In this document: piece after piece, positions 4,502 through 63,404 of the stretch
How the letters are laid out: every line of letters begins with the position of its first letter
Position numbering within the stretch: the first letter of the stretch is position 1
Assembly: GCA_000934665.2 (NCBI GenBank)
Contig: JYFJ02000732.1
Location: 1 to 64,000 of the forward strand
Length of the DNA: 64,000 bases
From: Catajapyx aquilonaris
Lineage: Eukaryota
Reading direction: 5' to 3'
Position numbers and translations under genes: made by a program
Notes under the pieces: model-generated
Database searches by the model: none
What the model was told of the DNA's origin: nothing
The model's input: the letters and a program-made list of their open reading frames with translations, nothing else

Positions 4502-6289
4502 TCATCCAGAACTTGTCATCAGCGGGTAGTTGTTGCTCAGGTATGTCGTCAGCGCTAAACGTATATCTTCAGCATTACCTCTTACTGCCCAATTGTTCCT
4601 CGCGTCTCGCACTGGAGGGTAATCTACTTCGACCGCTTGTAACTCTTTCAGCCATTCCTCATCAAAGAATTCTCCACGTTCCTCAACAAAGTTGTGAAGA
4701 AAACAGCATGCAGCAACCACTTTTGGTATGAACGTGTGGTGGATCTCCATCCGTTTGAACAACACCTTCCACCTCGCCTTGAGACGTCTCACCGTGAGGT
4801 CTACCACAGAGTGTCCTTGGTTCAGGTAAAAGTTGAAGGATTCCTCTTCAGGTGATAACTGCCCACGATCTGGATAGCCCTTGATGAGCCACGGAAGAAG
4901 AGGATGAACAGAAGCACCAATAAGGAAAAGAGGTATTTCTTCTCCCTCCACAGTGATTGGTCCCTGATTCAAATGAGAGAAAAAATTATGAACATCATGC
5001 TGCTGGCCATGCTTACACGTCTATCGTCACCTTGGGTAGTTTGTGAGCTGATTTGAACACATGTGATTCTCGAAGCACTCTTCCGTCATGGTCTGATCCA
5101 GGTGCCTGGCAGTTGATGTTGCGAATTCTATTGGGAAGAAAACAAAATTTGCTTAGTGCCTGTAGAATTGCAATAATAATATGACATGCAACATTTCTAC
5201 AATCTGCATTTTGTATGTACCTTAGTGTGTCATCCACAACCAGTTGAAGCACAACAGAGGCCCAATTCTGCTGGTTTATGAATTCACTGCGAGCATCTGT
5301 TGGCGGCATAATTGGTATGTGGGTGGTGTCGATGCAGCCCCATATCTGCGGAATGTTGCAGCGCTTCCTAAACCTGGCAGCAATTCTTTTGGCTTCCTCC
5401 TCGTGGGGTATGGACACAAAGGTCCGCAGCACTACATCGACCACCACTTTGCAAAAGAGTCTGAAGAATTTTCTTGCTGTTGTTCTACACACCCCAAATG
5501 CACTGGCCATTGCCTCCATATCACAACAGTTGGCAAGTTGGTACACAGCCATGGCCATCCTCTTCTCAAGGGACACTGGCTCACGCAAAGAGGCTTGACT
5601 TGGTGACATGTAAGGTCGCAAAAGGTCACAGAGCTCAAAAAAAGTCTCCCTTGTCATCCGGAAATTTGCAATCCAGTCCTTTTCTTGAAACTGTTGGCAG
5701 ACAGTCACCTCCCAAAACACACCCTCCCTCTTCTTCATCCATATCTGTCGCTCTCGGCGACAAGTTAAGGCCATAACAGGTCGAGGATCCATCAAATCCA
5801 TTGCTGCGGTTGTCCATTGCAATTGATGGGAAAGGAGCAGATTTAGCCTACGAGCTCTACGCCTCCTTAGCATGTCCATGAAACACCTGAGCTGGTCATT
5901 CTGTATCAGTTGCACACCAGCCACAACAGTGACTATGTACAGTTGCATGATGGCAAATATTGCCAGCAGTTCTTCATACGTCTGACTTGCAACAGGCACA
6001 GCTACTTGCTGAAATGATTCCGTATTAGTGACTGCTGCTGTGTCTACGATTCTTGCTGTTAACGTACCTGGCTGGCGCTTTCCTGCACAGCCACTGTTGG
6101 TTCATCCGCATCAGTGGCTGGCATGGCTACCACCGATTCTTCCGCTTCCATCTTAACCTCAGCAGGAGCGTCTTCGGTTACAGTTGATGCATCATCACAG
6201 TTAGAAAGCGCTTCCACTTTCACAGCCAGCCTCCAAGCATCCATAGCCTCTTCATTTTCCTCCTCCTTGGCAGTCACCTCTAGCGACAT
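4502..6289 (-). CDS. Cassette 3: acidic exon fused to Harbinger/HARBI1-like nuclease (probably catalytically dead)
   Basis: Exons 6289-6068, 6008-5221, 5127-5031, 4963-4502 with compatible phases; motifs NFRMTRETF, GCIDTTHIPI, GSDHD, RLKARW, ACCFLHN. Confidence 0.85.
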
Positions 6290-8275: not shown

Positions 8276-10959
8276 TTACTGTGGCTGGACCTGGACCATC
8301 TCAGACTCTATCGATTGGAAGTGATGGCGGTTTGCCTTTAAAAACATGAGCCTCTCAAAGTTGTTATCTGAGAGCGCAGCCGTCGATATATCTTTGCCAA
8401 TTGGGCAATGGGGCCCAACTGCAGCACTGGCCGGGATGGCAGTGTTGTATCTGATGAACAGATCTACGAAGATCTGCTCACCCAAAAAGGCTGCGTCAGT
8501 GAGGACCTCCTTTGAGCCAGCCTCCAACCAGGTCTTCACCATGTCCTGGGCTTTGGACTTGAGTGACCTGCGGCTGCTGCTCTTCACGGAACGAGTGACA
8601 CTGCTGAAGAAGTCTTCTTCTTCGTCCTCATCGCTGGTGCCGCTGCGGATGCCCTCCTCACTGCCACTGGTCTCCATCATGGCTCTCTCCACAGCATCCT
8701 CCATGCCCTTCTTGACCCTGGTGAGCTGGCTGTTGTCATACTGCTGCAGCCAGAAGAGGCGAAACCTGGGGTGGAAGGCAGCAGCCAGCTGGCACTCCTT
8801 GTCTTCCATGAGAGGCCCAAACCTCTTTGCGATTCCTGCCAGGATGACGTCTACCAGATGACTGCAGTACTGGAGGCGTTTCGACTTGACCTCCTTCAAC
8901 TTTATGACGGTGGCGGCTACAGTTGGCAGAAGGCTCCCGAGATAAGCCTGGTTCTCCTCTTGGATCTTATCCAAGGCCTTGGCAACACTGGACATTACCT
9001 GGGCGTACTCCTTCAGGAAGCCAATGTCACAATCAGTGAAGGTCTGCAACTGTAGCTGCATCATCACCCTATCCACATCTTCCTTCTTCTTCTCTAGCAT
9101 GTTGTTGAGGTGAACAACAGAATCGTACGTCGAGTTCCATCTGGTGCAGTTGGGAACCACCAGCCTTCTCTGCAACGCATCCAGAATGGTGTCTGCCGCC
9201 ACAGTGCTGCGACTCTGCAGGTTCCACAGCGCCTGTGCCTTGGACATGGCCATCCTGTAGGCTGACTTGAACGAAGCACAATGAAGAGCCTCATGGGTAT
9301 CCATGCTGGCTACCAAATTGAATGTGTGTGCTGCGCACCTCATGTGCACTGGCAGGTCCGGGCTGCTGGACTTCTCAAGTGCGGCATCAACAGAGATGAA
9401 ATCCACTTGGTCCACATCCTCCGAATCCTGTTCCATATCCTCGACTCCCTCAGGATCGGCAGCTGACTCCAGAATGTCTGGCATTGGCACAAGTTCAGTG
9501 CCAAAATGCGCAAACGTCTTCACCACGTTGCTGCCGTTGTCAGTGGTAGTTCTGGTCACCTTGTCCTGAAGGTGGAACTTGTGATGGTTGTCCACCATGG
9601 CCTGGGTGAGAACATCCGATGTAGGTTGTCCTCTGAGCGGAGAGCAAGCCAGGACGGCGTATTGTCTCTTGCGGGTCTTGGGGTCAATCCAGTGTGCCGC
9701 CATCTCAAAAAACCACCTGTTGTGGGCCGACCAACAGTCCGCGGTGGTTGCCACCCAAGAAACATCCTTCAGTGATCTGTAATCGAAAATTTTAAATGGT
9801 AAAGAGAAAGACTAACCAGACAAGTTTTGAGACAGAAAAGCAAAAATAAACATGTATAATAATCATATTAATTAATAATTTATAAAACGTACCTCATAAC
9901 ATATTCCTCCAGCTGTTTATGGTTGGCCGAGATCCTCTTTCCCAGTGTGAGGCGGGACATCGATGTCATGCCGGGGTTGAGTGTTTGGATGAGGCTGACA
10001 AAGGTGCGGGACTCCACTACATGCAGCGGTAGCATGTTGCAGACGAACAGGTCCACAATCTGTGTGTCCACCACAGACTGAAGGACGCCAGCGCCAGGCC
10101 GTAATTGGCCAAACGCCTCGCCAAGGGTGGACTGGCGTGGCTTCTTTGCAAGTTGTTGTGACAACTGGCTGCTGTTCTCGCTACTGGTACAGCTACCAGA
10201 TGATTTCCTGTGGCTGGGTCTCCCACGGGAAGAGCCGTCCTGAATCTTCTTCTGAAACAGGACGTCATGGGCTGGGTGTTTCCTTTTGATATGGGACTTC
10301 AGGTTGTAGAGGCTCGTCGCCTGTCCCTTTATGGTGATCTCCTTCGGCTGGCACAAGATGCAGCAGAAGTACAAGAGATTTGTGTTCTTCTGATCTCTTG
10401 ACTTCAGGACAAAGTAGTCCTCCAGGTGGGGCCACGGGTTCCCACTCTTCCCAGCTTGAGAAGCCGCAGTTGCTGCAGGCTCCTCAACAGACTTACAATT
10501 AGTTAGAACTACACTTAGCGGAAGCCACTAATAGCTTTCAAAGTAAACGCTAATAGCGTCACTAATTAGCGGAACCCTGCCCACCACTGCATTTTCCCCA
10601 ACTATTAGATATCGATGTTTTCAATAAAGTGCAGTGGCACCCACTTTGTGCCGTTAATTGAAAGGAAGTTTAATATGTTACTTCGCGTCTAGTTATTTCA
10701 TGCCATACATTGCCGACATAATTACCTCGCAGGACATTTCCTGAGTAAAGGCTACGGGGTGGCCTCCGCTGCCAGGTTTTGTTGCAACCGGCTCTTCATC
10801 TACAGCCTCCTCCTCCTTAATGCTTCCATTAATGATGTACGCATCATCATTGAAGCATGGCGGTGCGGTATCCTCCTTCACGGCCAATCTCCACGTTTCT
10901 TCCGTACAAATCATCTCCTCCTCAGCTTCCAACTCCTCCTTCTTGATTAGCAGATCCAT
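8276..10959 (-). CDS. Cassette 4: acidic exon fused to BED finger + hAT transposase-derived protein (ZBED-like)
   Basis: Exons 10959-10726, 10491-9893, 9776-8276 in frame; BED finger CILC...HIKRKH; TADCW, TDNGSN, CAAH, TRWNS. Confidence 0.85.
10500..10589 (-). mobile_element. Residual hAT transposon end in the intron before the BED exon
   Basis: CAGTGGTGGGCAGGGTTCCGCTAATTAG with CGCTA/TAGCG subterminal repeats; no clear partner TIR or TSD. Confidence 0.55.
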
Positions 10960-35601: not shown

Positions 35602-37008
35602 TTATGAACTATCCTTATGGGGAGCCTTGGGAGGACGTTTGTACGTACGGATCACCGTATGTTGGGTCACTCGTAGAGTGGGCACTTCCTCCACTTCAAA
35701 AGCCAATTCTTTCTTCATGTCATGAGTCACCATGTGTGACTTTACCTGAGCTGCACGACTAAACCTTTTATTGCACAATTGGCAAGCGAACGGCGTCTCT
35801 CCCGTGTGAGTGAGCATGTGACGTTTCAAACTACGAGCCCTAGTAAAAGTTTTCTCACATACTTCACAAGCAAATGTTTTCCTCCCTACATGTGTCTCCA
35901 TGTGTGACTTCATGGTAGCTGAGCGCTTAAACCTTCTATTGCACAAATGGCAAGCAAAGGGCTTCTCTTCTGTGTGGGTGACCTTGTGAATTTTTAAATT
36001 ATTAACCATAGTAAAAGCTTTCCCACATACTTCACAAGCAAATTTGTTCCTACCTACATGAGTCACCATGTGTTTCTTCAAGCCAGATGTGAGACCAAAC
36101 CTTTTATGGCACAATTTGCAAGAAAAGGGCTTCTCCCCTGTGTGAGTGACCATGTGGTATTTCAAATGCTGAAGCTGCAGAAATGCTCTTTGACAAATCT
36201 TGCACACAAATGGCTTCTCTCTTTCGCACGTCTCCTTACCGTTCAGCATGAGCTTCTCTCTCATGTGAATGACCTTGTGACTTTTCAAATTATCAACCCT
36301 AGTAAAAGCTCTCCCACATACTTCACAAGCAAACTTTTTCCTCCCTAAATGAGTCACCATGTGTTTCTTCAAGCCAGTTGCGAGACTAAACCTTTTATGG
36401 CACAATTTGCAAGCAAAGTGCTTCACCCATGTGTGCTGCGTTACCGTATGGTCTTTCAAATTCCGATGCTGAGTAAATGCTTTTTGACAAATCTTGCAGA
36501 CGAATGGTTTCTTTCCATTGCATGTCTCCTTACAAAGTGGCATCTGCATTGCACTCACTGCTGTTACATCACAAGAGTCTTGCTTTACCTGAAATGAAAT
36601 TGTTGAGTCACAGAGTATGAATTCAACCATTTGCAAATTAATGACTGTTATGCCAACATCAAACATGTCTCTGGTGGTCAATTGACTGGTAAAATCATCT
36701 GCCAAGATTGTTGTTTGTGTAAGTAGAATTTCAGCCGCACATCAAACCTCATTGGTACATACATCAGCAACTGCCAAAGGGTCATCCAAGTCATCAGCAA
36801 CGTCTGGCATGCTGACCACCAACTCCTCTTCCACAGCCTCCTCCTTAACCTGGACGTCAGATACCTCTACATGTGTTGAATCGTCCGCTGTTGACAACGG
36901 GGCTTCATCCTTCGTTAAGCCCATCTCCTCTTCAACTTTAATCCCCTGGTTCCCTCCTTCCTCCGTCTCCTCCACCTCCTCCTTCTTTATGGACACCATC
37001 TCTGCCAT
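35602..37008 (-). CDS. Cassette 13: acidic exon + C2H2 protein (9 fingers) + VIRTY tail
   Basis: Exons 37008-36748 and 36588-35602; fingers 1-3 are duplicated as fingers 4-6. Confidence 0.9.
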
Positions 37009-37219
37009 GGCCCTGGTGAATGAATGATTATTATCCTACACAACATGATGTGAATGGGGTCTGTTCCCCTTCCCAACCCAGTCACCTGCCTTTCCCACCC
37101 TTCCCACCAACTCACCCTGCCACCGAAGCTTCCTCCGACTCAACAACTGGTCGCACCAAACCCACAGGACCAGAGGAAATTATTAAAATCCAGGTCTGCA
37201 AATGTCACAATCGGAAAGT

Positions 37220-37265
37220 GGAAGCCATCTTGGAAATTTTTCATCGGGTGCATTCATACCACCGA
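37220..37265 (-). promoter_or_regulatory. Cassette promoter 13
   Basis: GGAAGCCATCTTGG, GGGTGCATTCATACCACCGA. Confidence 0.75.
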
Positions 37266-37877
37266 TACCAAAGACCAAATCCGTTCCAATTTATAAATGA
37301 AAAACGGACCAAAAAAATTTGAGAAAAATATTTTTTAGTATGAAATGAAAACAGTTTTTAGCATTTAAGATGTGGTGCAAGATGGTCTCTTTGTAAAATC
37401 TTTTAAAAAATTGTTATATTTATGTCAATCTAATTCAAAAGAGCAGCTAGTGGTCAGTAGATGCTACCACACACTCGCTATTTAGCTATCCGCTAGTTGC
37501 ACTACATTTTTACGACGCGATTCAGATCATCGCAACCACTTTGAACGCAATAAAAACACATGTAATTTTATAGACCAACTGGGTAAGTCAGAATAATTAA
37601 ATCCATGCGTAACATAGCCAATCACATTATTCTATGGCTCATACGACCTTGTTGAGATCCCATTTAAAAATTGGGCATACACTAATTATACTAAATTTCC
37701 TTATAAGAAAACTAACAGCTTCCAGTTTCAAAAACAACTCATCCAAATATTTAAAACATACAAACAAAAGCAATAAGCCAATAACATCAATACAAATACA
37801 TGTATTATCGTAGCCGACTTGAAAAACCACATACAGACAACATACAGCTCATAACCACGTAATTTTTATTTACATTA

Positions 37878-38978: not shown

Positions 38979-39931
38979 TTATGAACTATCCTTATGGGGA
39001 GCCTTGGGAGCCCGTTTGTATGTACGAATCACCAGATGTTGGGTCACTCGTAAAGTGGGGACTTCGTCTTCTTCAGAAACAAATTCTTTCTTCATGCCAT
39101 GAGTCACCATGTGCTTCTTCATGCTAGATGCAAGACTAAAGCTTTTATGGCACAATTGGCAAGCGATGGGCGTCTCTACCGTGTGAGTGAGCATGTGACG
39201 TTTCAAACTACGAGTCCTAGTAAACGCTCTCCCACATACTTCACAAGCAAATGTTTTCCTCCCTAAATGAGTGACCATATGTTGCTTCAAGCCAGTTGAG
39301 AGACTAAACCTTTTATGGCACAATTTGCAAGCAAAGTGCTTCTCCCTTGTGTGCTGAGTTACCGTATGGTCTTTCAAATTCTGATGCTGAGTAAATGCTC
39401 TTTGACAAATCTTGCATACGAATGGCTTCTTTCCGTTTCCCATATCCTTATAATGTGGCATCTGCATCTCATTCCCTGCTGTTCCATCACAAGAGTCTTG
39501 CTTTACCTGAAATGAAATCATAGGATCACTGAATGCATTCAACAATTTGCAAATTTATGACTGTTACGCCAACATCAAACATGTCCCTGGTGGCCATTTG
39601 TAGGGTAAAATCATCAGCCAAAATTGTTGTTTGTTTAAGCACAATATAGTTCAGCTGCACATCAAACCTAATTGGTACTTACATGATCAGCTGCCAAAGG
39701 GTCATCCAAGGTGTCAGCAGCATCTGGCAAGTTGACCACCAACTCCTCTTCAACTGCCTCCTCTTTAACCTTGACGTCAGATTCTTCAACAGGTGTCGAA
39801 TCATCAGCCTTGCGCAGTGGGGTTTCATCCTTCGCCATCAGCAACGTGTCCTCTTCAATTTTAATCCCCTGGTTCCCTCCTTCCTCCGTCTCTTCCACCT
39901 CCTCCTTCTTTATGGTCACCATCTCTGTCAT
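38979..39931 (-). CDS. Cassette 14: acidic exon + C2H2 protein (4 fingers) + VIRTY tail
   Basis: Exons 39931-39683 (CAT|GTAAGT) and 39506-38979; close paralogue of cassette 13. Confidence 0.8.
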
Positions 39932-40139
39932 AGCCCTGGTGAATGAATGATTATCCTACACAACATGATGTGAATGGGGTCTGTCCTCCTTCCCAACCCA
40001 TTCACCTGCCATTCCCACCCTTCTCATCAACTCACCCTGCCACCGAAGCTTCCTCCGACTCAACAACTGGTCGCACCAAACCCACAGGATCAGAGGAAAT
40101 TATTAAAATCCAGGTCTGCAAATGTCACAAGCAGAAAGT

Positions 40140-40186
40140 GGAAGCCATCTTGGAAATTTTTCACCGGGTGCGTTCATACCACCGAC
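40140..40186 (-). promoter_or_regulatory. Cassette promoter 14
   Basis: GGAAGCCATCTTGG, GGGTGCGTTCATACCACCGAC. Confidence 0.75.
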
Positions 40187-40847
40187 ACCAAATGCAATGA
40201 AAAACAGACCGGAATAATTCGCAAAAAAGAACTTTATGATGATACGCAAGTAAATTTTAAATCTTGAGATTTCGTGCACGAATTGCAAATTTCTTACTTA
40301 TAAATGCTTCATTTCACTTCAAAGAAGAAGTTATTCAACCTTGTAAGTAGCAGTTCCAGGAGTAACCGCTAGTGTACAATAGCTGCTACCATATAATCGC
40401 TATTCTGTTATCCGCTAATTGCCCTTGATTTACGATATTTTTTCACAATTCTCACAATTAACCACAATTATGAACTACCGCTTTGAATGCAATACAACAC
40501 CAACTAATAAAATGAGAATAATACAATCTATGCATAACATAACCTATCACCATACTACCACGTATGCTGTAGCTCATGTGACCATGTCACGATAAAATTT
40601 TCGATGATAATTAATTTGAATATCAAAAAAATTAACAGCACTCAACTCCAAAAATATTGTTCATCCCTCGTTCAAATCCCAAAAAAATAAATAAAGCAAT
40701 AACATCAAAGTGTATACTCACTGAAATATCACATTGACCACATATTTATTTGCATTATACTTTTCCTCTACACTGCTTTGATACACAATGTTATTTTATT
40801 ATTTGTTTCTGCTTGTGAACAACAATAATTTTATGAGAGATGGCAAG

Positions 40848-42928: not shown

Positions 42929-44623
42929 TCATGTGTGAACATTCATGTGTCTTCTCAAATGAGCAGCCCTGCTAAACTTTTTCTCACACTGGCTGCATGG
43001 AAACGGCTTTTCTCCCGTATGACTCTTCATATGCTCCTTCAAATGTGACGAGCGACCAAACTTATTCTCGCAAAATTGGCAGGAAAGTGGCTTCTCCCCT
43101 GCATGAGTCATCATGTGCGTCCTTAAATTATAAGCTTGACTAAACTTTTTGTGACAAACTTCACAATCAAAAGGCTTCTCCCCAGTGTGAATTAGCATGT
43201 GTTTTCTTAAACTAGACGATTGAGTGAACTTTTCATTACACACCTGACATGAAAATGCCTTCTCCCCTGTATGAGTGACCATATGCTCTTTCAAATGCTG
43301 ACCCAGACTGAAGTTTCTCCCACACAAATGACATGAAAATGGTTTTTCCCCTGTATGTGTCAACATATGTCTCTTTAAATTAGTTTCTTGACTAAACTCC
43401 TTCTGGCACATGGTGCAACCGTACGGCCTATCTCCCGTGTGTGTTGACATGTGGTGTTTCAAATTACGAGCCCGACCAAAGTTCTTCCCACACACTTCGC
43501 AAACATATGTCTTCTTCTTCTCACGTGTCCACATGTAAACATGCATCTGCATCACACTTGCATCATAAGCTGCATCTTGCGTTACCTGAAATATGAACAA
43601 GCTCAATGAGTCATTGTAAAAACTGCAACATTGTCTTTTGAACACATACGCCACATTCTGAGATGACTTGCACGCTATTTTAAGCGGGTTAAATGTAAAA
43701 TCCTTGGCAAATTTTATTCTGACACTAAAGGTCGGTATCCGCGTACGAGATTCTCGCATACGAGGAGCCGCGAGGAGCCAACAGCGCATGCCCAGATACG
43801 AGAAAGTTGAAAATTTTCAACTTTTTCCCCTTTCCTCGTATCTGGGCATGTGCAGTTGGCTCCTCGCGGCTCCTCGTATGCAAGAATCTCGTACGTGGAT
43901 ACCGGCCTTAACATAAGACATTAAAGTCTCATTAAAGGGGAGACGGAGTGGCACCGCGGTAACGTGCGCGCCCGCGGATGTTAAGGTCCCGGGTTCGATC
44001 CCTGCCCGGGGACACCCCCTTCATCTCGTGCAGAGTTCAGGGTCACCTCTGGCTTCGTCTCGGGTGGTATTTCCTACAGACTAAACCACCCGGGGGGAGT
44101 TCACTAAAAATGGCCACAGCGTCAGATTCACTGCACTTTGCACATCCCCTCCTGTCATCCTGCCCGTGGGCCCGGGCGCTTCAAAAATAGGATTCCAAAA
44201 ATTGTATACCATCATAATAAAGGTCTGGCAGAAGGCCCCTCAGGGGCTAGCCGAATACCCAATCAATTATTATTATTAAAGTCTCATTAAGTCATGGGTA
44301 TTTTCATTGAACTTAATCAATCTTTGCAATATCACGTTCGTATTTTTTCACTCCGATGATACCTGACTGGTTCCACCATGAGTGTCAGCCAAGGGGTCTT
44401 CTGCATCATCAGTCGCATCTGGCATGGTGACCATCGCCTCTTCCTCAGCAGCCTCCACTTTAACAGAACTGCTATCCACGGGAGTGGAGCCATCATCACT
44501 CAAGCACGCCCCAGGCTCCTCTTCCTTCAGTTCCAACTTCAAACACTGGCCAGGAATCAACACCTTGTCTTCTTCCGCATACTCCTCCGCCTGCTCCTCC
44601 TTCACCATCACTTCCAACGGCAT
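42929..44623 (-). CDS. Cassette 16: acidic exon + C2H2 protein (7 fingers)
   Basis: Exons 44623-44363 and 43585-42929, phase 0. Confidence 0.9.
43730..43907. mobile_element. Nearly palindromic MITE (Harbinger-like ends)
   Basis: GGTCGGTATCCGCGTACGAGATTCT ... AGAATCTCGTACGTGGATACCGGCC; arms of about 75 bp; TAA-type flanks. Confidence 0.8.
43937..44274 (+). mobile_element. tRNA-derived SINE
   Basis: A box TGGCACCGCGG, B box GGTTCGATCCC, (ATT)n tail, 16-bp TSD ATTAAAGTCTCATTAA. Confidence 0.85.
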
Positions 44624-50675: not shown

Positions 50676-51617
50676 TTATTTATGTTCTGCATGAGTTGCC
50701 ATATGCCTCTTTAAATTACTTGCCTGCGTATAATCTTTATGGCACATTTGGCAAACGAATGGCTTTTCTCCTGTATGAGTTATGATATGTTTTTTCAAAT
50801 GAGAACTCGTGCTGAACTTTTTTTCACACTCATGACACTGGAATGGCTTTTCACCTGTGTGGGTCACCATGTGCGTTTTCAAAGCAGACCCCTGCCGAAA
50901 GGTTTTCAGGCACAACTGACACGCAAATGACTTCTCTCCCGTGTGAGTCATTCTGTGTGTTTTTAAAGTACCAGCATGAGAAAATGTCTTCTGGCACACA
51001 TCACAAGCAAATGGTCTTTCCCCTGTGTGACATCTGATATGCTCCCTTAAATGAGAAGCCTGATAAAACCTTTTTGGGCACACATTGCATGTAAATGGTT
51101 CTTCACCTGTATGAAACAGCATGTGCTTTTTCAAGAAACGTGTCGTTCTAAACTCTTTCTGACACACATTACAAAATAACGAATTCTTTCCTTCACTTGA
51201 CCCACTCCTTCGTGGTGCGACTCCTTCTGACAGACTCCCATCATCTTCACTTTCTCGCACCACCTGGAAGACACATTAGGTGACTGACACTTGGATAACC
51301 AAATGGACTAACATATAATTACTTGAAAGTGCATAAATTGCCTGTTGCTACCCTACCTGATGAGCAGTGTCTTGATATGTTTCTGCTAGTGGATCATCCA
51401 TGTCGCCGGTGTCTTCTGGCATGATGGACATGATCTCTTCCTCTGATTCCTCCACCTTAACCTCCCTCGTCCCATCTTCTGTGTCAGGTGAAGACTCGTC
51501 AGAAGGACTTTCCTGCTTCAACTCCTCCTCCTCCTCCTCCTTTTCTGCCTTCACGTTGACTACTTCACCTTTCACCTCCTCCGGCACCTCCTCCTCGATC
51601 CTTAGCACCGACGACAT
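50676..51617 (-). CDS. Cassette 19: acidic exon + C2H2 protein (6 fingers)
   Basis: Exons 51617-51357 and 51263-50676. Confidence 0.9.
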
Positions 51618-51739
51618 GGTCCTACTAGAGAAGGGCATGTTTACAACCTATAAATTCGCATCCCGGTCTCTCCAACTGAGGAAGCGAGGATCAGCGACGG
51701 AAAAACAAACCAATATTCGATCCGAGTCAATCAGTCGCA

Positions 51740-51816
51740 GCGGCCATCTTGGATCAGCTGAAGTGGGGTGCGTTCCTACCAGTGACGACAGAAACAGAAG
51801 GAACGTTCCTTGTCCA
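51740..51816 (-). promoter_or_regulatory. Cassette promoter 19
   Basis: GCGGCCATCTTGG, GGGTGCGTTCC, CGTTCCTTGTCC. Confidence 0.75.
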
Positions 51817-52412
51817 GTCATTTCGATGGGCTTAACTGCTATTCGCACACTAGCTGCTAGTCACTATCACACTAGCCGTTATTGTAGTCGCAAATTGCTT
51901 TTCATTAACTGAAAGTTATTAGGAGTGAATATACTTAAAATGAGAGTCCCAATAAATGAAATTAAGTATGTTTAACCATTAATCAAGTTCATGTACCAAC
52001 TGGATCCAAGTAAAGCTCATGTTTTATCACAACTCAAGACAACAGATATTGAAAAACTCTTCACATTTTCATCTAATATTATTAGAAACAACTTCCATTT
52101 AAAATAATCAATATGCGGAGCAAAATCAGTCCCGAAAAGAAGGATTTGATTGACAACATGGCATGGAAACAAATGGTACAATACGCGTATTTAATACTAC
52201 TGTTTGTATTACACGGACTGATCTGCCCAAGTTGACTAAATTCGGAGAGTATGGGATGGGAAAGAGTTGAATAATTAGCAACTGGTCTGAATGAGAACTC
52301 CAGTCCAGACTTGGCTAAAAGTTGATGGCATTGAAATTTTGTAACAATTTCAGAGCCAAATGGTATTTACATCTGGAATGCGGTGTAAGCTTATTTCCAG
52401 TGAGCCTCCAAT

Positions 52413-53520
52413 TTATGCATGTCCTGCATGAGTCAACATATGTCTCTTTAAATTACATGCCTGACTAAACTCCTTATGGCACAATCGGCAAACAAATGGC
52501 TTTTCTCCCGTATGAGTTACCATGTGTGATTTCAAATAAGAAGCCAAGCTGAACTTTTTCTCACACACATGACACTCAAATAGCTTTTCACCAGTGCCAG
52601 TGTGGGTGACCATGTGAACTTTCAAATTGGAAGCCTGCCGAAAGGTTTTCAAGCACACCTGACAAGCAAATGACTTCTCTCCTGTGTGAGTCATTCTGTG
52701 AGTTTTTAAATTACATGCATGAGTAAACTTCTTCTCGCACACATCACACGCAAATGGTCTTTCGCCTGTGTGACACTTCATATGCTCCTTTAAATGTGAT
52801 GCCCGATAAAACTTTTTTTGGCACAGTTGGCATCCAAATGGCATGTTTCCAGTGTGCGTCATCATATGCTCCTTCAATTTAGCCGATTCAATAAACCTTT
52901 TCTCACAGAGTTGACAAGAAAAGGGCTTTTCTCCCGTGTGAATTAGAAGGTGAGTTTTTAAACCAGTTGAGCGAGTAAACCTCTTCTGGCACAAATGACA
53001 ACTAAACGGCTTTTCTCCCGTATGAACCGTAACATGTTTTTTCAAGTCACCTCTTAATCTAAACTTTTTCTGACACACGCTGCAGGTAAATGGTTTTTCG
53101 CCCGTGTGAATGAGCTTGTGGTTTTTCAAAACACCTGCTGCACTGAACTCTTTCTCACACTCCTGACAATAAAATGATTTTTTTCCTTCACTTGATCCAT
53201 GACTTTGTGGCGGGACTCCTTCTGTCGCACTCCCATCATCTTCACTTCCTTGCACCACCTGGAAGATGCATTTTATTAGTACTAGGTTAGCCAGGTCTCA
53301 TGCGTTTCCTGTTGCCAACCTGACGGGCGTCTTCTGCCAATGGGTCACGTGTGTTTTCAGTGGCTTCCGGCATGACGGACATCTCTTCCTCCAGCTTAAC
53401 CTCCCTGGTCCCATCTTCAGAGCTAGACTCATCAGAGCCCGAAGGAGTTTCCTGCTTCATCTCCACCTTCCACTCTTCCTTCACGTTGACTACTTCATGT
53501 CCAACCTTCTCCTCCTCCAT
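52413..53520 (-). CDS. Cassette 20: acidic exon + C2H2 protein (9 fingers)
   Basis: Exons 53520-53320 and 53258-52413. Confidence 0.9.
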
Positions 53521-53667
53521 GGTCCTAAAGAAGAATTTGCTCATCAAGGTCATGTGTACAACATCGCAAGGGAACCCTTGCCTTCCTATGTTTGGCAGCC
53601 GCGTCTCTCCAACTGAGGATCAGACCCTTAGGAAAAACCACTGGAAAAACAGAGTCAATCAGATGCA

Positions 53668-53746
53668 GCAGCCATCTTGGATAATATATCAGCTGGGGTG
53701 CGTTCCTACCAGCGACTACAGAAACAGATGGACCGTTCCTTGTCCA
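53668..53746 (-). promoter_or_regulatory. Cassette promoter 20
   Basis: GCAGCCATCTTGG, GGGTGCGTTCC, CCGTTCCTTGTCC. Confidence 0.75.
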
Positions 53747-54487
53747 GTCATTTCGATGAGATTAACCGCTAATCATATAGCTCCTGCACTAGCCGTTATT
53801 GCTATCGCATGCTGCTTTTCACACTAATTTATTAAGAACTTGTGCCCTGCCTGCCCGGCTAAGGGACAAGAAAGGCCTGGCTTTCTCCTCCCAGCGTACC
53901 CCCAAAAGGACAAGACCACAGTTCTGACTACCAACCGCTTTTAATCCTCATCTGCATACTACACATCATACGTACATACCGCCTTTGGCCAACAGTCGGG
54001 CAGTGCCCCTTGCTACAAACACACTCTTCAAAAAACACAGGCCAGTCTCTCCTTCGACCACACCAACCACACCCTTGTCTGGCTCACACTTTGCTCTACC
54101 TCAGCTGGTCCTTACTCTGCCCTTCTTCCTGTGACCCGTCTCCCCCAAGCCTCTGTTAGCTGGCTCCCCTATCAGTCCCTGCTGACCAGATGTCCCTGAC
54201 CAAATTATAGACGTCTGAAGCACTTTTAAAAGGAAGTAATAAATATTATTATTCTGGCAGTTACTGGTGTTGTTTTGCAATTTTCTTCATACAGCCTGTC
54301 GGTTGTGGGTGCAAAATGATGTCAAAATCCAGGTCAGCGATCTTGCAAACAATGGAAGCAACCTTTACAATTCATTTCCATGGTATAGTTTACAGGGTAA
54401 CATATTTTATGGTGACGTTATTTCCCACTCACACTACTGTGCGGCGGGACTTTGATGGCAAGAACTGGGTCAGTTCCTAAAACTAAG

Positions 54488-55954
54488 CTATTTATCAGCA
54501 ATTTTATTCAATACTCCCAACAACTGACCCATGAGGTTCTTATTATCCTCATGGGCTTCCCTGAGCATGCGGAGGGTTTCTTGATGCTGCTGCTGCTGCT
54601 GCTGTAGCGCTTCTCTTAGCACCGCCACAATTTCATCCTTCACCCTCTCTGCAGCACTCCCCTTGAATCTTTTCCTCTTCACCACAGGTGGTAGCGCTTC
54701 TCTTTGCACCGCCACAATGTCGTCCTTCACCCTCTCTGCAGCACTCCCCTTGAATCTTTTCCTCTTCACCACAGGTGTTCCAAGTCCTGAAAGGATTTCC
54801 TTTATGTCGCATGACCACAATTCGGAGGCTATTGACACAGACACACCTAGGTATAGCACAGATGCTGACGAATCCTGAGTCATACCAGATGAGTTCCTGC
54901 TGGAGCTCCGCACACTGTCGTCAGAGCAGCCACTGGTGCTGGAATGGCTCCCTGTGGAGAATACAAATGCATCAGTTGTAGCTGTTACAACTAATCGGTC
55001 GTCTGCTGGGAGTGCTCCAACAGCTCCAGTGCGCAGTGGGCCACTTTGGATTAGAACTAGCTCCACTTTTAGGTGCAGCAAACGGGGCGCAAGGTTACCT
55101 CCAGCTCCCAGGATGGTGTCCTGGATGGCTAGTGGTGTGACATTCGGCCTGTCGCCCATAAGCTCCTCCATCTCATCTTCATATGGACATGTTCTCCTGC
55201 CATTTCCACTTTTGGAGTTGTGGTCCTTCACTCGCTTGTATGCACATTGCAGGGTTTTCCACCGACCCATCACTTGGGCAGTGGAATACGCAACACCTGC
55301 AGTGGCTTTGACTGAGTCTATCACCATCTGCCATAGGTGTTTTTTTTTTGTATCTTGGACTTGACCACTTCTCCCCCACCTCCTTCCACGCTGCGATGAG
55401 GGCGAGTGTGGCACGGCGACCCCAAACTGACACGGAAAACAGCCATTAGATACTTTCAACACCGTCGTTACAACAACTCCTCTGGTTCTCATAATACTGC
55501 AACATGGCACGTAATGGGACAGTGTCAACTCCATTGCGGTCACCAGATTTTCCTTACCTTCAGCATGTGTGCTACTCCCTTGTACTCCCTCCTATTGCCT
55601 CTTTCACTGCATGCACAGTTCTTTCATGTTGACAGTCCTACCTGTTCCTGTCACAGCCTCACTTGGGCAACTGCCTCCTGTCTGTGGCACATTCTCCGGT
55701 CCCCTGTGTCCTGTCTCTGGCACATTGTCTTCACTCGTATTCCTGTTGCCAACCTGACGGGCGTCTTCTGCCAATGGGTCACGTGTGTTTTCAGTGGCTT
55801 CCCGCATGACGGACATCTCTTCCTCCAGCTTAACCTCCCTGGTCCCATCTTCATAGCCAGACTCATCAGAGCCCGAAGGAGTTTCCTGCTTCATCTCCAC
55901 CTTCCACTCTTCCTTCACGTTGACTACTTCATGTCCAACATTCTCCTCCGACAT
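54488..55954 (-). CDS. Cassette 21: acidic exon + trihelix/Myb-SANT-like domain + coiled coil (one frameshift in an A10 run; possible pseudogene)
   Basis: Exon 55954-55642 (phase 1) joins the acceptor at 55426: WGRRATLALIAAW...YKKK/HLWQ...RWKTL..AYKRVKDHNSKSGN...PYEDEM. Confidence 0.65.
54604..54777. repeat. 87-bp coding tandem duplication
   Basis: PVVKRKRFKGSAAERVKD(D/E)IVAV(Q/L)REAL occurs twice. Confidence 0.9.
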
Positions 55955-56105
55955 GGTCCTAAAGAAGAATTTGCTCATCAAGGTCATGTTTACAACAACA
56001 TCGCAAGGGAACCCTTGCCTTCCAATGTTTGGCAGCTGCGTCTCTCCAACTGAGGATCAGACCCTCAGGAAAAACCACTGGAAAAAACAGAGTCAATCAG
56101 ATGCA

Positions 56106-56181
56106 GCGGCCATCTTGGATAATCAGCTGGGGTGCGTTCCTACCAGCGACTCCAGAAACAGATGGACCGTTCCTTTGTCCA
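56106..56181 (-). promoter_or_regulatory. Cassette promoter 21
   Basis: Near-identical to promoter 20. Confidence 0.75.
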
Positions 56182-56933
56182 GTCATTTCGATGAGATAAA
56201 CCGCTAATCATACCGCTCCTGCACTAGCCGTTATTGCTATCGCATGCTGCTTTTCACACTAATTAAATGTTGAACTCAAGGTGGTTAATTAATTTTAATT
56301 TAAGTGCGGCTCGGGTCAGGTCCAAATATTCCACGAATCTGTTTGACCATGTAACAGTACATTTACATGCAAGTACTTTTATTTTCTATAAATTTATATT
56401 TTTTGATAAGTTTGTGACACAGAATGCGACCTCCACTTTCGGAATGTCTGCCCCGAAATAAAAACATACTGGCCCCTACACTCTTATAAAAATTCCTCAG
56501 CATTGGTAAGGTATGACCCTCTTTGCGCATTATTCTTAAAGTCATGAAAGCAAATTAAAAGTGTTCCTCTTGGCGTGACCTGGATGACAAGTGTTTGTGC
56601 TGCAGCGGAAAATGAAGAGAGCGGATGTCTTATCTGGTAACAAATATCAGCACATAAACTGGGTATGGCTTTTTATAGGAATGACGATATTTTAAAAAGA
56701 GAGTATAATGTATCTCAGTAATGAATTAGGTGCGTTTATTAATCTTTAATCAGGTCCATGTACCAACTGGATCACTGCGAAGTAAAATTACATGACCGCA
56801 TGCACCACTTGTGCGACTTGGAATTACTTTTTTTCATACATACACACATACATCACATAGCTGTACTTATATAGAATATTATTGTTGTTACCATCATTGT
56901 CTTTCCCAGATGTTACACTTGCTTAAGACCTTC

Positions 56934-58011
56934 TCACCTTGTGTGAGTCTTCATGTGATTCTTTAGAACTTTTGCCCAACCAAACGTTTTGTGGCACACT
57001 TCACAAACAAATGGCTTTTCACCTGTGTGGGTTACCATATGAGATGTTAAGTGATCAGCCCGATAAAACCTCTTTTGGCAACATTCGCAGCTAAATGGCA
57101 TATCCCTAGGCACTTCACCTGTGTGAGTACGATTATGTATTTTCAATTTAGATGCATCAGCAAACTTTTTATCACATAATTCACAAGAAAACGGCTTTTC
57201 TCCTGTGTGAGAGAGCAGGTGTCTGTTTAAATTAGACCTTTGAGTGAACCTTTTCTGGCACACAGGACAACCTAATGGCCTCTCACCTGTGTGAACCATC
57301 ATATGCTTGTTCAAATCACCTGTTAATCTAAACCTCATCTGGCATAGGTCGCAAACAAATGGCTTTTCCCCAGTGTGAATTAACATGTGTCTTTTCAAGC
57401 CACTGGCTTGTCTAAACTTCTTCTGGCATAAATGGCAAGCCAATGACTCTTCCACTTCATGTGTCGTGTGATTTTGCACTTGGGTCAAATCCCTCGCTTC
57501 TTCCTGAAAAATAAAAAATTACGTTTTCAGTGCATGGATATGAGCCAAACTTTTGGCCAAAATAGTATCACAATTTCAGTTAAAGACATCATTACACTTC
57601 TTGTCATAAATTCTGTACTGTTATATGAATAGTTATTAGCTCTGTGCATAATGCGCATATCCCATTACAATATTATTACAACTTAAGCAACATTTTGTCA
57701 TTCCATTTGTGTTGCATTTTAGTTGATTGACAACGAGCCCTTAACGTATGAGTTCTTACAAGGTGAGCGTTGCCGGTGCTCCCATGAGTAACAGCCAGTG
57801 GATCATCCATGTCGCCAGTGGCTTCCGGCATGACGGACACCATCTCTTCCTCCACCTTAACCTCCCTGGTCCCATCTTCAGCATCATCAGACTCATCAGA
57901 GCCCGAAGGACTTTCCTGCTTCACCTTCCACTCCTCCTTTTCCATCATTACTCCGTCTACTTCATGTTCCTCTTCGACTTCCTCCTTGATCCAAAGCACC
58001 TCCGATGACAT
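56934..58011 (-). CDS. Cassette 22: acidic exon + C2H2 protein (6 fingers)
   Basis: Exons 58011-57760 and 57503-56934, phase 0. Confidence 0.88.
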
Positions 58012-59177: not shown

Positions 59178-60888
59178 TCAGATCCTTTTGTTGTAATTGA
59201 TAAATAGCATCATTTTTGCCTTTTCTGAGCTCAGTCGATTCCTGTTCTCGGTAAGAGCACGGCCAGCTTTAGAAAATACACTCTTGCATGGCACCGATGT
59301 GCCCTGAACACACAGATGATTTCTGGCTAATTTGGAGAGCACAGGGTATGCGTCTCCACGTGACTGCCACCATTGCACAGGATCCCCAGTAGTCTCCAGG
59401 TAAGGTGCGTCCAGATATCTGCCAAAATAATGAACGCATTAAAAATCTCAGCCCATCCATCCGCATGGTTTGCATAAACTCACCGTTGCAGTTCAAAGAT
59501 TGCTCGAGCCTGGGGAGTTCCAGTTGCTTGAGCATCGCTTTTTTTCTTTTCTAAGTCTGACAATAGAAATAGTGTAGCTCCCTGACCAGGTGAGGAAGTT
59601 CTAGGTGGTTCTGATTCGGTGACTTGTTGTATTCCCTTCAGATCATCTTCCACCATCAGCATTGCTCGTATTTGGCGCTTCATCTTGTCACTTTGACGAT
59701 AGTCTCGGAAGGGCAGCAGTTTGAAACGTGGATCTAGAACCGTTGCAACTCCCAGAGTGGAATCATATTCGATATCTTTCAGCATGTCTGCCTCGCTTGC
59801 CTTCTCATCAATGCGGTTGAGCACCTTTTCTGTCAGATCTGAATACGACTTTTGACTGAACTTATCAATAAGGTCTCTGAGACCATATGTGTAGGGGATA
59901 AGTAGTGACCCAGACACATAGTCTTCCCTGCCCAAGGCTGCTGCTAATTCCTCCCAAGGCTTTATAATCGCCACTAGCTGCCTACAAGTCTCAAGCTCCT
60001 CGTTGGTGAGCATTGGAAAATGATCACCCAGCACTGCCAGTGTTGTCCGAATAGCTTCCTCCTGCTCAATGAATGTCTTCAGCATGTAAAATACGGAGGT
60101 CCACTGTGCCTCGCATGACAATTTCAGCCGCTTTGGAGTACCATTAATTTCCTGCATCTCAGTCAGTTTCTCACCAGCAATATTGTTACACCGAAAGTGA
60201 TTCACAATTTCTTTAACGTTGTCTACGAGGGGTTTGGCAACCTCAAGCCCACAGTTCATAATCATGTTGAGCTTATGTGCAAAGCATCCAATCTGTTTCC
60301 ACTGATTTATATTGCCTATTTCTAGCATATCAGCAGAATTTTTGGTCACTAACCAACCAACCTTTGAATCTAAATCCCAGTCGTACCTCACACGTGCCAT
60401 CTCAGTGGCCATGTGCTCAGGAGTGTTACGACCGGTCATAACGATGCATTCCAGCAGAGCATGTTCCAAGACAAAGCCTTGCGTGATGCCATGAGCTGTC
60501 ACTGTCATAAAGCTTTCGCCTTTGCTTGAATTCCAGAAATCCGACGTCAAGCAGATTGTGCCCACTCCTGCCAGCCTTTGCTTTACTTCTTGCACACACG
60601 AGTGATACAAGGAGGGAAGGAAGGTCTTGGAAAAATACTTCTTGCTTGGAAGCTTGTAACTGGGATTGAGTGCCTGAACGAATCTTATAAACCCACTTGC
60701 TTCAACCAGTGACAACGGCAAGAAATGGTCAATGCACATTTGCATGAGAGCAGCGTTCGCGTTTTCCTGGCCAACCTCTGTGATTCGCTTTGGAATGAAA
60801 AAAGTGCTGGGTTGCTGCGTTGTTGCCATTGATCTCAAGCTAGCCTCACTTCCAGATGACGGATCACCAGCAGAGACTGATCCTTCAG
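59178..60888 (-). CDS. hAT transposase-derived exons (ZBED1/ZBED4-like body and dimerisation domain), probably catalytically dead
   Basis: Exons 60888-59484 and 59418-59178; LTSDFW, CFAHKLN, LDPRFK, WW...YP.LS.LA...L...TSVP. Confidence 0.85.
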
Positions 60889-61081
60889 CTGCAATGAATC
60901 ATGTTAATTTTAAGACACAGTGTCAGACAAATATTTTAAGAATGTTTCAATGGGCACAGACGTGAATTTCATGTTGTGGCTGTTTCTGGTCTCCCACTAC
61001 GCAATGTGGATGTTGGTAATAAATCCCTCTAAGGAAATGGTTGAACGACTAAACATTTGATGACCTCATTTATTAACATTA

Positions 61082-63404
61082 TTACTTGTTCTTACAAGCA
61101 GTGTTATAGTGGCACTTATAATTGCATTTGAGATTTCTCGAGCGACATTTACATTTCTTGTCACCGCAGTACTTTTTGCAAGTGCATCTTACGGCTCCCA
61201 GCCTGCTATCTGTATATAAAGCTGATGGCGACTGACGCGGTACAGAACTGGAAGGAACTTCATTCAGATTGATAACATCAATATCAGCAGTTGTGAACTC
61301 ATTCCGAGCATACAGCCTATCCAAAATGCCTTCCTTGGTGCCCAGCTGGTAGAACCCAGATTCATTAACACCTACAACAACTGCTAAAACATTGCTGGGA
61401 GCCAAACATTCTTGATTTGTTTTGGGCGCTATAACCACTACGCTTCTCCCTACATCGACAGCGGGGAGTGCTGAGTCGGACAGAGAAATCGCTTGCTCAG
61501 TTTGTTTTTTCTGACTGGATCTTGCATTTTTATGGTTACTTTTCATATTATCTTTATTCAAACACTGGTTGCAAATGATTTTCTGTCCAAACCCCTCATT
61601 TACTTCCGTGTATTTTCCGCAAAACACATGAACATACCGATCACAAACAAAACACTTGTTACCAGAACACTCGTTCTCACAAACTGCACAGTACACATTA
61701 TTTTCAGGTTCATCTTGAAGCATAGTGTTGGCTCCATCCTCATCTCTTCTGCTCTGAATGTTGTCAGGTTCTTCGTCGTCATCAGATTGTACTTTATTGC
61801 TGCCAATTTGTGAGATAAAGAGCTGTTCTAATTCCTCTTCAGTTTCTATCCGAGTGTAGACATCTTTTTGAAAGGTAGAATCTGCAAGTCCCATCCTTTT
61901 CGTAATTCCAAATGTAGCTCGATAAGGACTCATCTTAATTCCTGCATGAAAAGCTTGGTTCTTCTTGCTCTGAATAAAACGCAGTCCGTCTGACCATCTC
62001 TGTGATGTGTTGTCAGCCATCCACGCTCCAAGCATGTCTCTCACATCTTGGTTTGATACATCAACCGATCCCTGGCTTTGGGAATCTCGGGGCTTTCCGT
62101 GCACGAGCTTCAATCCTGGCCACATTTCGGCCAAATTCTTAATCACTTTGTGTGCAAATTCTCGTCCGTTATTGCTCTGAAGTATAAACGGAGCACCAAA
62201 GATACAAAAGATGTCCATTACTTGATAAGCCACTTCCTCAGCAGTTTGAGTTTTCAATGGACGAAGAACTGTAAATTGAGTTATATGATCTTGATAATTC
62301 AAAATGAAACAATATTCCCCATCTCGTTCTGACTGCATGTTGATCAGATCTATTTGACATCGAGAATTCATGTCATTCGAAAGAATTGGCTGAACTACCA
62401 ATCTCCGTTTGGCTGCTTTCTTCTTTAACTGACATTTCTTGCAAAGAGATATATAAAGTTCAATAACTTTGCGAGTAACATTGGAATACTTTGTCTTCAA
62501 TTCAGCTTCCATGACTGAAATGAATAAGGAAAAAAAACTAGTAAAACTTCTGTTGTGCACGTAAGGTTCTGTCATGTTTTCTCTCTCTGTCATTCATGCA
62601 CAGAGCAAACAATTTTATGCATTTGAATATTTTATATTTTGCCTTTTTAGGCCAAAAATATTTTGCTGTCAGCAAAAAATTTATTTTTTAATTACATTTT
62701 CATGCATGTATACTAGCACAAAAGGTGACTGTTTCCAGTAGATTATAACTAATTCTAAAATAGTTGCGGACAAAAAAATTTTAAACTGTGGTAAACCTAA
62801 TATTCTGTGAGCATAAAAGTCAGCACGTAGTGGCCTACAACATATTGCAGCATGGAACCAGACTTGCTAAAATGCTGAACCTGTCAAAAGGCGCTGGCTA
62901 CACAAAAAATTTCATTTCCATCCGCAAAGTTGCCCAAAATGGCTGAATAGACTTACAAATCCATAAAAAATCCATTAAAAATCATTAATACAGGTGTTAT
63001 TTACTTACTTCTGCTCTTTTTGTGTCCAAGGCTAAGATGCACAGATTCCAATATATCAAAAAGTTCATCACTGGTACAGAAGTAACGCATGTCCGAACCA
63101 CTTTTACGTGCACCACCGTCAACGAGCTTTTCTGTATCTCCAATTTTCACCACACCGTATCTTTTAATACGTCGGTACTGCTTCGATGTCAAATGCTGAT
63201 TGTTCCGTCGTAATTCATGAGCTTCTTTCACTTCACATAAAATTGTTTGGTAACGGTCAGCATCAAGCATAATGCATCTATCATTACTTGATTCCAACAA
63301 CTCTGTCAGTTTCTCATAAAAAATTTCCTTCACACTTTTGACAGCAGCCGTGGCTACGGACGTCCTACTCTGCTCACATTCATTTGCCAAATTCAGACAG
63401 CTGA
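61082..63404 (-). CDS. KRBA2/SCAND3-like integrase-derived exons with H2C2 finger, rve-like core and Cys-rich C-terminus
   Basis: Exons 63404-63009 and 62514-61082; H...GH...C..CQ, RCQIDL, FGAPFILQSNNGREF, SQSQGSV. Confidence 0.85.

Follow-up and report, generated by a model that had tools for sequence, protein, structure and literature searches.

A duplicated zinc-finger first exon beside a frameshifted Harbinger Myb-like gene fragment in Catajapyx aquilonaris: a probable unselected intermediate of exon capture

We analyzed a 64,000-nucleotide (nt) stretch of Catajapyx aquilonaris DNA (assembly GCA_000934665.2, contig JYFJ02000732.1, positions 1 to 64,000, hereafter the window) in which a duplicated first exon of a zinc-finger gene lies directly before a fragment of a Myb/trihelix gene of PIF/Harbinger type. 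The locus is, on balance, probably a young and unselected rearrangement within a zinc-finger cluster, which provides raw material for a fusion and does not constitute a working gene. None of the Myb-containing products predicted from the duplicated exon would hold an intact trihelix.

Minus-strand C2H2 zinc-finger genes are clustered in the window, and each pairs an acidic first exon with a finger exon. The acidic exons end at a phase-0 GT a few codons past a common DPLA-like motif (17 matches, one of which is an internal repeat), and this donor is often weak-looking. A promoter-side motif lies 5' of many acidic exons, with 10 matches in the window; we take it to resemble a YY1 site. One gene of the cluster, gene A, conforms to this plan with an acidic N-terminal exon followed by a single exon of tandem C2H2 fingers. 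The promoter, leader and acidic exon of gene A form a cassette that is present twice.

52413-53258, minus strand: zinc-finger exon of gene A with 9 C2H2 fingers, phase-0 acceptor at 53258, stop at 52415-52413.
53259-53319, minus strand: phase-0 intron of gene A, 61 nt, predicted from frame and GT/AG.
53306-53829, minus strand: cassette copy A, with promoter-side motif at 53678, leader, acidic exon and donor after 53320.
55740-56264, minus strand: cassette copy B, with promoter-side motif at 56116, leader, acidic exon (ATG 55954) and phase-0 donor after 55754.
56653-56795, no strand assigned: upstream flank of B, homologous to the flank 5' of the paralogous gene at 51.9 kb.

A preliminary description of this DNA had claimed near-identical copies of about 520 bp at 53306-53828 and 55740-56264, and pairwise alignment bears this out with 95.5% identity over 529 columns (E value ~0). 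Copies A and B differ by 15 substitutions in 520 aligned bases (2.9%) and by 4 indel events, in keeping with the recent duplication proposed there. Similarity stops 14 nt beyond the CAG|GT donor, which matches the abrupt divergence reported just past CAG GTT GGC AAC AGG AA. The splice of one copy to nine fingers also follows from the frame: the acidic exon of A (ATG 53520, with further in-frame ATGs at 53553 and 53544) joins the finger exon through a predicted 53320|53258 splice to encode 348 amino acids (aa) with 9 C2H2 fingers. A search with copy B across the genome (286 Mb in 20,583 contigs, with intron-containing genes) returned four matches, all in the window, namely B, A and two older paralogs at 57816-57939 (85%) and 51447-51904 (68%).

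Inspection of the flanks indicates which arrangement came first. Copy B holds the ancestral upstream flank and copy A holds the ancestral downstream context of intron and finger exon, with A's own upstream side replaced by transposon sequence. Because B has the paralog-like flank and A has the intron and fingers, the ancestral order ran from upstream flank to promoter and acidic first exon, short phase-0 intron and zinc-finger exon. The event added one cassette and 1.9 kb between the copies.

Merged haplotypes or an assembly artefact would instead make A and B alleles, or place the insert elsewhere, and we give this reading scant credence. In its favor, none of the contigs listed spans the whole stretch, and the junction contigs extend into the cassette by just 30 letters, which misses the bridging rule by one. 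Read depth over the insert is 0.74-0.84 of the flanks, and the three DNA runs (X1-X3) derive from one sample, possibly the assembly source, with contigs that drop rare variants. On the other side, contigs covering 52200-53335, 53800-54665 and 55290-55769 are identical to the window in 3/3 of these runs, and each of them reaches the cassette. Since the junction contigs run into cassette sequence, both insert ends abut cassette, and ends inside it would be the expected behavior of a short-read graph at a repeat. Such depths are not copy numbers, yet they lie far from one half; the lower value may come from the higher GC (guanine plus cytosine) content of the insert, 47-51% versus 41-42% in the flanks, or from polymorphism. 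A run from another sample (X5) covers solely the zinc-finger exon region, at a depth of ~2-4 with none at 53208-56500, and is evidence neither way. An assembly artefact is unlikely.

The insert between the copies (55739-53830) is a Myb/SANT-like gene with exons at 55426-55099, 54951-54886 and 54786-54488. The exon downstream of B matches Pfam PF13837 Myb_DNA-bind_4 with an E value of 8.7e-9, over the curated cut-off.

55558-55739, minus strand: insert start, cut within a Myb-gene exon, with the read-through frame from B and a phase-1 donor after 55642.
55099-55426, minus strand: Myb/SANT (trihelix) exon with native phase-1 acceptor at 55426.
55340-55349, minus strand: ten-A run, which shifts the frame by +1 after helix 1 and before helix 2.
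54886-54951, minus strand: serine-rich exon of 66 nt between introns of 147 and 99 nt, with splice sites as in the paralog L004.
54488-54786, minus strand: last Myb-like exon, with a basic patch, a Q/L-rich helical tail and a stop at 54490-54488.
53830-54487, minus strand: insert 3' tail, which meets copy A at an AATAAA (53833).

The insert start holds stops at 55606-55604 and 55594-55592 and a second donor after 55558, which its alignment marks as the probable homolog of the donor native to the paralog. That alignment to the paralog scores 56 versus a maximum of 54 in 500 shuffles. The last Myb-like exon carries an in-frame 87-bp tandem duplication (54604-54777, 3 differences in 87), and polyadenylation-like hexamers lie at 53945 and 53833.

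Genome searches with the insert link it to Harbinger elements. They returned a 300-bp fragment at 95% (L002, contig C4221), which is the only close sibling found, together with ~70% paralogs (L004, L005 and L007) and two matches to the 3' tail. These last two span 54204-54446 (243 bp) at 79% on contigs C12677 and C10319 and are 98% alike to one another over 115 bp. Copies within Harbinger elements had been anticipated in the preliminary description, and the L004/L012 paralog (contig C3859, ~70% DNA identity) is of this kind: it and a DDE_Tnp_4 transposase (E value 8e-36) stand tail to tail, and an inverted repeat of 37 nt at 100% encloses the Myb gene and the transposase. A transposase also adjoins two more distant paralogs, L035 and L036. 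These comparisons support a PIF/Harbinger-linked, transposon-type Myb/trihelix gene as the neighbor of B.

The insert itself lacks the parts of a mobile element. A tblastn search over 53830-55739 with the L012 transposase found no transposase, and the only good match of that enzyme in the window is at 4688-5693. Terminal inverted repeats of the insert did not rise over shuffle level (score 23, shuffle median 25), and there is no start exon. Because it is an internal fragment that starts inside an exon and has no terminal repeats, cut-and-paste insertion does not explain it. Arrival by template switching or illegitimate recombination would fit better.

Two further origins were tried and rejected. 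A Pack-type element enclosing B finds no inverted repeat linking 53830 to 56260-56760, the segment 56262-56720 is single-copy, and genome-wide a candidate end motif (56475) has 3 occurrences versus 1 for the control. A retrocopy with a long target duplication fails on the introns of the insert and on the missing poly(A) tail at 53830.

The fusion advanced in the preliminary description has B reading on to the phase-1 donor after 55642, which is matched by the acceptor at 55426. Frame and phase agree as described, with an open frame from B's ATG to 55642, but the join does not yield a trihelix protein. The ten-A run is one base longer than in the in-frame paralogs L019 and L021, and this extra A at 55349-55340 puts the 55642 join out of frame. 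The predicted product of 186 aa has helix 1 only, reads the wrong frame afterwards and stops at 55181. The donor after 55558 sits behind two stops and gives 116 aa; this frame has no match to any Pfam family at an E value of 0.1, which leaves the acidic exon without a Pfam family. Among 872 single-intron GT-AG models from B's ATG, not one combines helix 1 with helices 2-3, and the long frames arise solely from phase-0 donors with loss of helix 1. The capture of the domain through the 55642 splice is therefore not upheld: the young copy and its Harbinger Myb neighbor stand, and the fusion splice does not.

To rescue the whole trihelix through 55642 would require a nine-A allele or transcriptional slippage on the run. 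Slippage occurs on A runs during transcription, and this run, which encodes lysine codons, is unstable in the family. It is broken in 3/6 covering copies (window +1, C3859 +1, C5199 -1), a count that takes in loci L016, L017 and L019-L022, with L018 dropped for absence of the region and the two other slips unchecked against reads. The assembly nevertheless has ten A's, as does the contig 55290-55769, which carries the run without difference in 3/3 DNA runs of the one sample, and the product ends at 55181. We regard a whole-trihelix fusion as very improbable. A programmed frameshift was considered and is not favored, as family copies slip both ways.

A different join starts from B's own phase-0 donor, which the preliminary description overlooked. 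Copy B retains this donor (55754|55753), followed by 14 nt of the old intron. The donor is in frame with the Myb exon because the extra A cancels the phase mismatch, at the cost of reading helix 1 in the wrong frame. In this frame the Pfam profile aligns over positions 24-89 of 89, versus 4-89 for the intact paralog. AlphaFold, given nearly identical alignment rows for the two inputs, returned a predicted local distance difference test score (pLDDT) of 59 and a predicted template modeling score (pTM) of 0.41 for the chimera, with residues 1-23 below 50, and 81 and 0.70 for the intact paralog. According to the cited part of PMC9392472, binding to DNA and to proteins depends on the trihelix and its aromatic residues. 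With helix 1 lost, normal DNA binding by the chimera is thus unlikely.

Several observations weigh against an unselected rearrangement. The 55754 to 55426 join gives an uninterrupted 297-aa frame that reaches the native stop and takes in helices 2-3 and all later exons, and the position of B's donor is the usual one for the acidic exons of the cluster. Without splicing, 54491-55591 (minus strand) is an open frame of 367 codons, in which the two introns, of 147 and 99 nt, have lengths divisible by three and contain no stops. The promoter-side motif has its ancestral form in B and one substitution in A. DNA searches of the genome with the insert or its parts did not find the donor element, and the junction mechanism is one that we infer. 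Donor strength was rated by eye against the consensus. Finally, the substitution pattern looks neutral in these alignments, but its counts are too small to exclude selection.

Those counts come from two comparisons. The coding parts of A and B differ at 6 sites, all nonsynonymous (P 0.26 under neutrality), and polarization by the two older paralogs places 5/6 of the changes on B's branch and 1 on A's. Copy B thereby has five derived amino-acid changes and zero silent changes in 67 codons. In the Myb exon of the window, set against its 95% sibling L002, the derived changes in 53 codons are 3 amino-acid replacements and 1 silent change, with 2 codons unpolarized.

A nascent functional fusion would place these observations in another light, with the 55754 to 55426 splice in use and the +1 slip retained for opening the frame, in the manner of the one-base change in KRABINER. 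Its product would combine an acidic head, a partial Myb domain and a helical tail, and would act through protein contacts or as a dominant-negative inhibitor of Harbinger, not through normal DNA binding. Besides the open frame to the native stop and the family-standard donor position, this reading can draw on downstream splice sites conserved with L004 and on a chimeric frame that survives retention of both downstream introns (379 aa). The simulated chance of the open unspliced frame is 0.003, with random intron length class and shuffled content, in a post hoc test. KRABINER itself, as outlined in the cited sections of Cosby et al. (10.1101/2020.05.07.082677), offers a precedent. Against these stand the out-of-frame segment that replaces helix 1, a run that slips often in the family so that one of two directions opens the frame by chance, and substitution counts that do not support purifying selection. 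We consider a functional fusion unlikely. The open unspliced frame is left unexplained, as the test is post hoc and the splice sites still match the paralog.

A bolder version of this idea is decidedly unlikely. It would describe the first steps of a KRABINER-like gene birth in a zinc-finger cluster of invertebrate type, in which a duplicated acidic exon captures a Harbinger Myb gene and a slip in a hypermutable A run, though it disrupts the frame of the transposon itself, brings the phase-0 donor into frame with the recognition helices and tail. The protein would have the acidic head of the host in place of helix 1 and an open frame even with both introns kept, and it could be a dominant-negative regulator of Harbinger.

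The donor of B has a second partner. It also joins the finger exon at 53258 in frame across 2,495 nt to give 348 aa, so that B could serve as an alternative first exon. Under such an arrangement the zinc-finger gene would have in B an alternative promoter and first exon further upstream, with the Harbinger piece and A removed as a 2,495-nt intron, and two near-identical 348-aa isoforms would result whose regulation is possibly different. The ancestral upstream flank and unaltered promoter-side motif of B agree with this, as does the transposon sequence upstream of A. By contrast, B's 67 codons show only amino-acid replacements among their derived changes, several acceptors lie between B and 53258, and the polyadenylation-like hexamers at 53945 and 53833 fall within the intron to be skipped. 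This reading is fairly unlikely.

For the unselected rearrangement that we prefer, the following course can be proposed. In a single event, the 525-bp cassette would have been duplicated and an internal Harbinger piece of 1.9 kb left between the copies; that structure is present in the window and the mechanism is inferred from it. In the Myb exon the A run has slipped by +1, and further copies of the family have it broken as well. If the promoter of B fires, its two stronger-looking donors would yield truncated products of 116 or 186 aa, and other products might be the 297-aa chimera without helix 1 or the 348-aa zinc-finger protein made by a 2.5-kb skip. Gene A would carry the function, and the B-Myb chimera would drift.

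Relatives of the insert elsewhere in the genome were also surveyed. The Harbinger element at L012:470-4605 (C3859) is nearly complete: its transposase frame of 366 aa is open, its Myb gene has two frameshifts, and its left terminal repeat is missing the outer end. None of 18 other Myb-family loci has an acidic exon or finger array nearby, within the 2-10 kb examined. The intact paralog domain is predicted by AlphaFold to fold as a trihelix. A fold search with this domain gave no match at an E value of 0.001; the GT-1 DNA-binding domain came out best among the PDB entries, with E values of at least 0.16. Protein database searches with the intact paralog domain, the 367-aa frame of the window and a 9-sequence alignment likewise had no match at 0.001, which is weak evidence. 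A truncated copy of the Harbinger Myb gene, whose trihelix frame is intact, occurs at L013 (C1039:36500-46499), within tandem genes that look by eye like F-box/leucine-rich-repeat genes.

Other elements occupy the window and its surroundings. Within the zinc-finger cluster, a duplicated gene pair at 36248-37272 and 39166-40192 is 87.6% alike, and in the copy at 39.7 kb the acidic exon ends in a stop. Positions 4505-6101 (minus strand) hold a spliced Harbinger-type transposase (DDE_Tnp_4) with 27-34% identity to the L012 enzyme; its motifs differ from those of L012 at two catalytic-looking positions, and it is possibly domesticated. A 503-aa frame at 61085-62593 (minus strand) combines an integrase core with a SCAND3-like finger. 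The long frames at 59483-60898 and 8279-10527 (minus strand) have no Pfam match at an E value of 0.001; by eye, we take them to resemble hAT-type transposases. An 88% palindrome of 182 bp at 43728-43909 stands beside a repeat at 43937-44190 that is shared with L012:4951-5204 at 81%, and both are probably small mobile elements. Past the window, at ~65.0-72.7 kb of the contig (L015), acidic exons lie near three frames that by eye look like THAP (65456), a Six-type homeobox (69903) and Tigger (72697, 508 aa).

Most described transposon-capture genes have been observed long after their fixation by selection. At ~3% divergence, the present locus shows the raw step, in which an effector exon is duplicated and set before transposon coding sequence, and a small indel settles the frame. 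Should the phase-0 chimera be made, homopolymer slippage would act as a phase adaptor in exon shuffling, and the locus would provide a testable Harbinger Myb capture by a non-KRAB zinc-finger family. Should it not be made, the locus exemplifies an unselected intermediate and illustrates that a phase-matched donor and acceptor are no proof of fusion. A literature search that excluded supplements (Table S3 of Cosby et al. could list Harbinger-derived fusions) and most subscription papers found no report that pairs the first exon of a zinc-finger gene with the Myb-like gene of Harbinger.

Comparison with known systems places each part of the locus. Gene A resembles the FiNZ-ZNF genes of cyprinid fish and the KRAB-ZNF genes in the portions of Wells et al. 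(PMC10547256) cited here, with an acidic, glutamate-rich N-terminal exon and a C2H2-array exon repeated many times in a cluster; the acidic exon, searched as the 116-aa frame of B, has no Pfam match at an E value of 0.1. PIF/Harbinger elements have a two-gene plan, and domesticated Myb-like genes such as NAIF1 and MSANTD1-4 derive from them, according to the cited part of PMC9392472. The L012 pair of Myb gene and transposase within inverted repeats fits this plan. The window copy shares with these elements a Myb/SANT trihelix gene whose paralogs L012, L035 and L036 adjoin a DDE transposase. The domesticated genes have kept the trihelix, and insect pairs, for example APM and LPM2, also show synteny and purifying selection (PMC9710019, as excerpted). 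MADF-type genes have been attributed to PIF elements (PMC10027918, as excerpted). Unlike NAIF1, the MSANTD genes and the insect genes as characterized in those excerpts, the window copy is a frameshifted piece from the interior of an element and lacks a start exon, a transposase and terminal repeats. Its broken coding region keeps it out of the class of domesticated Harbinger Myb genes as the cited parts of PMC9710019 and PMC9392472 describe it.

The closest parallel is KRABINER, which the cited sections of Cosby et al. (bioRxiv 10.1101/2020.05.07.082677) describe as bat ZNF112 exons joined to an Mlmar1 mariner. As in that gene, a zinc-finger first exon stands before transposon coding sequence, the acceptor was already in the element, a one-base change opens the chimeric frame and the parental isoform is still possible. 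In contrast to the host-transposase fusions treated there, the captured part is the Myb-like partner gene of Harbinger and not the transposase. The arrangement also departs from KRABINER, so far as those sections describe it, in that it arrived with duplication of a host exon and not by insertion into an intron, and in that the one-base change destroys helix 1. Splicing at the locus is predicted, and its few substitutions gave no sign of purifying selection. In this probably unselected, KRABINER-like arrangement of exon and element, the features particular to the present locus are its youth and the frameshift.

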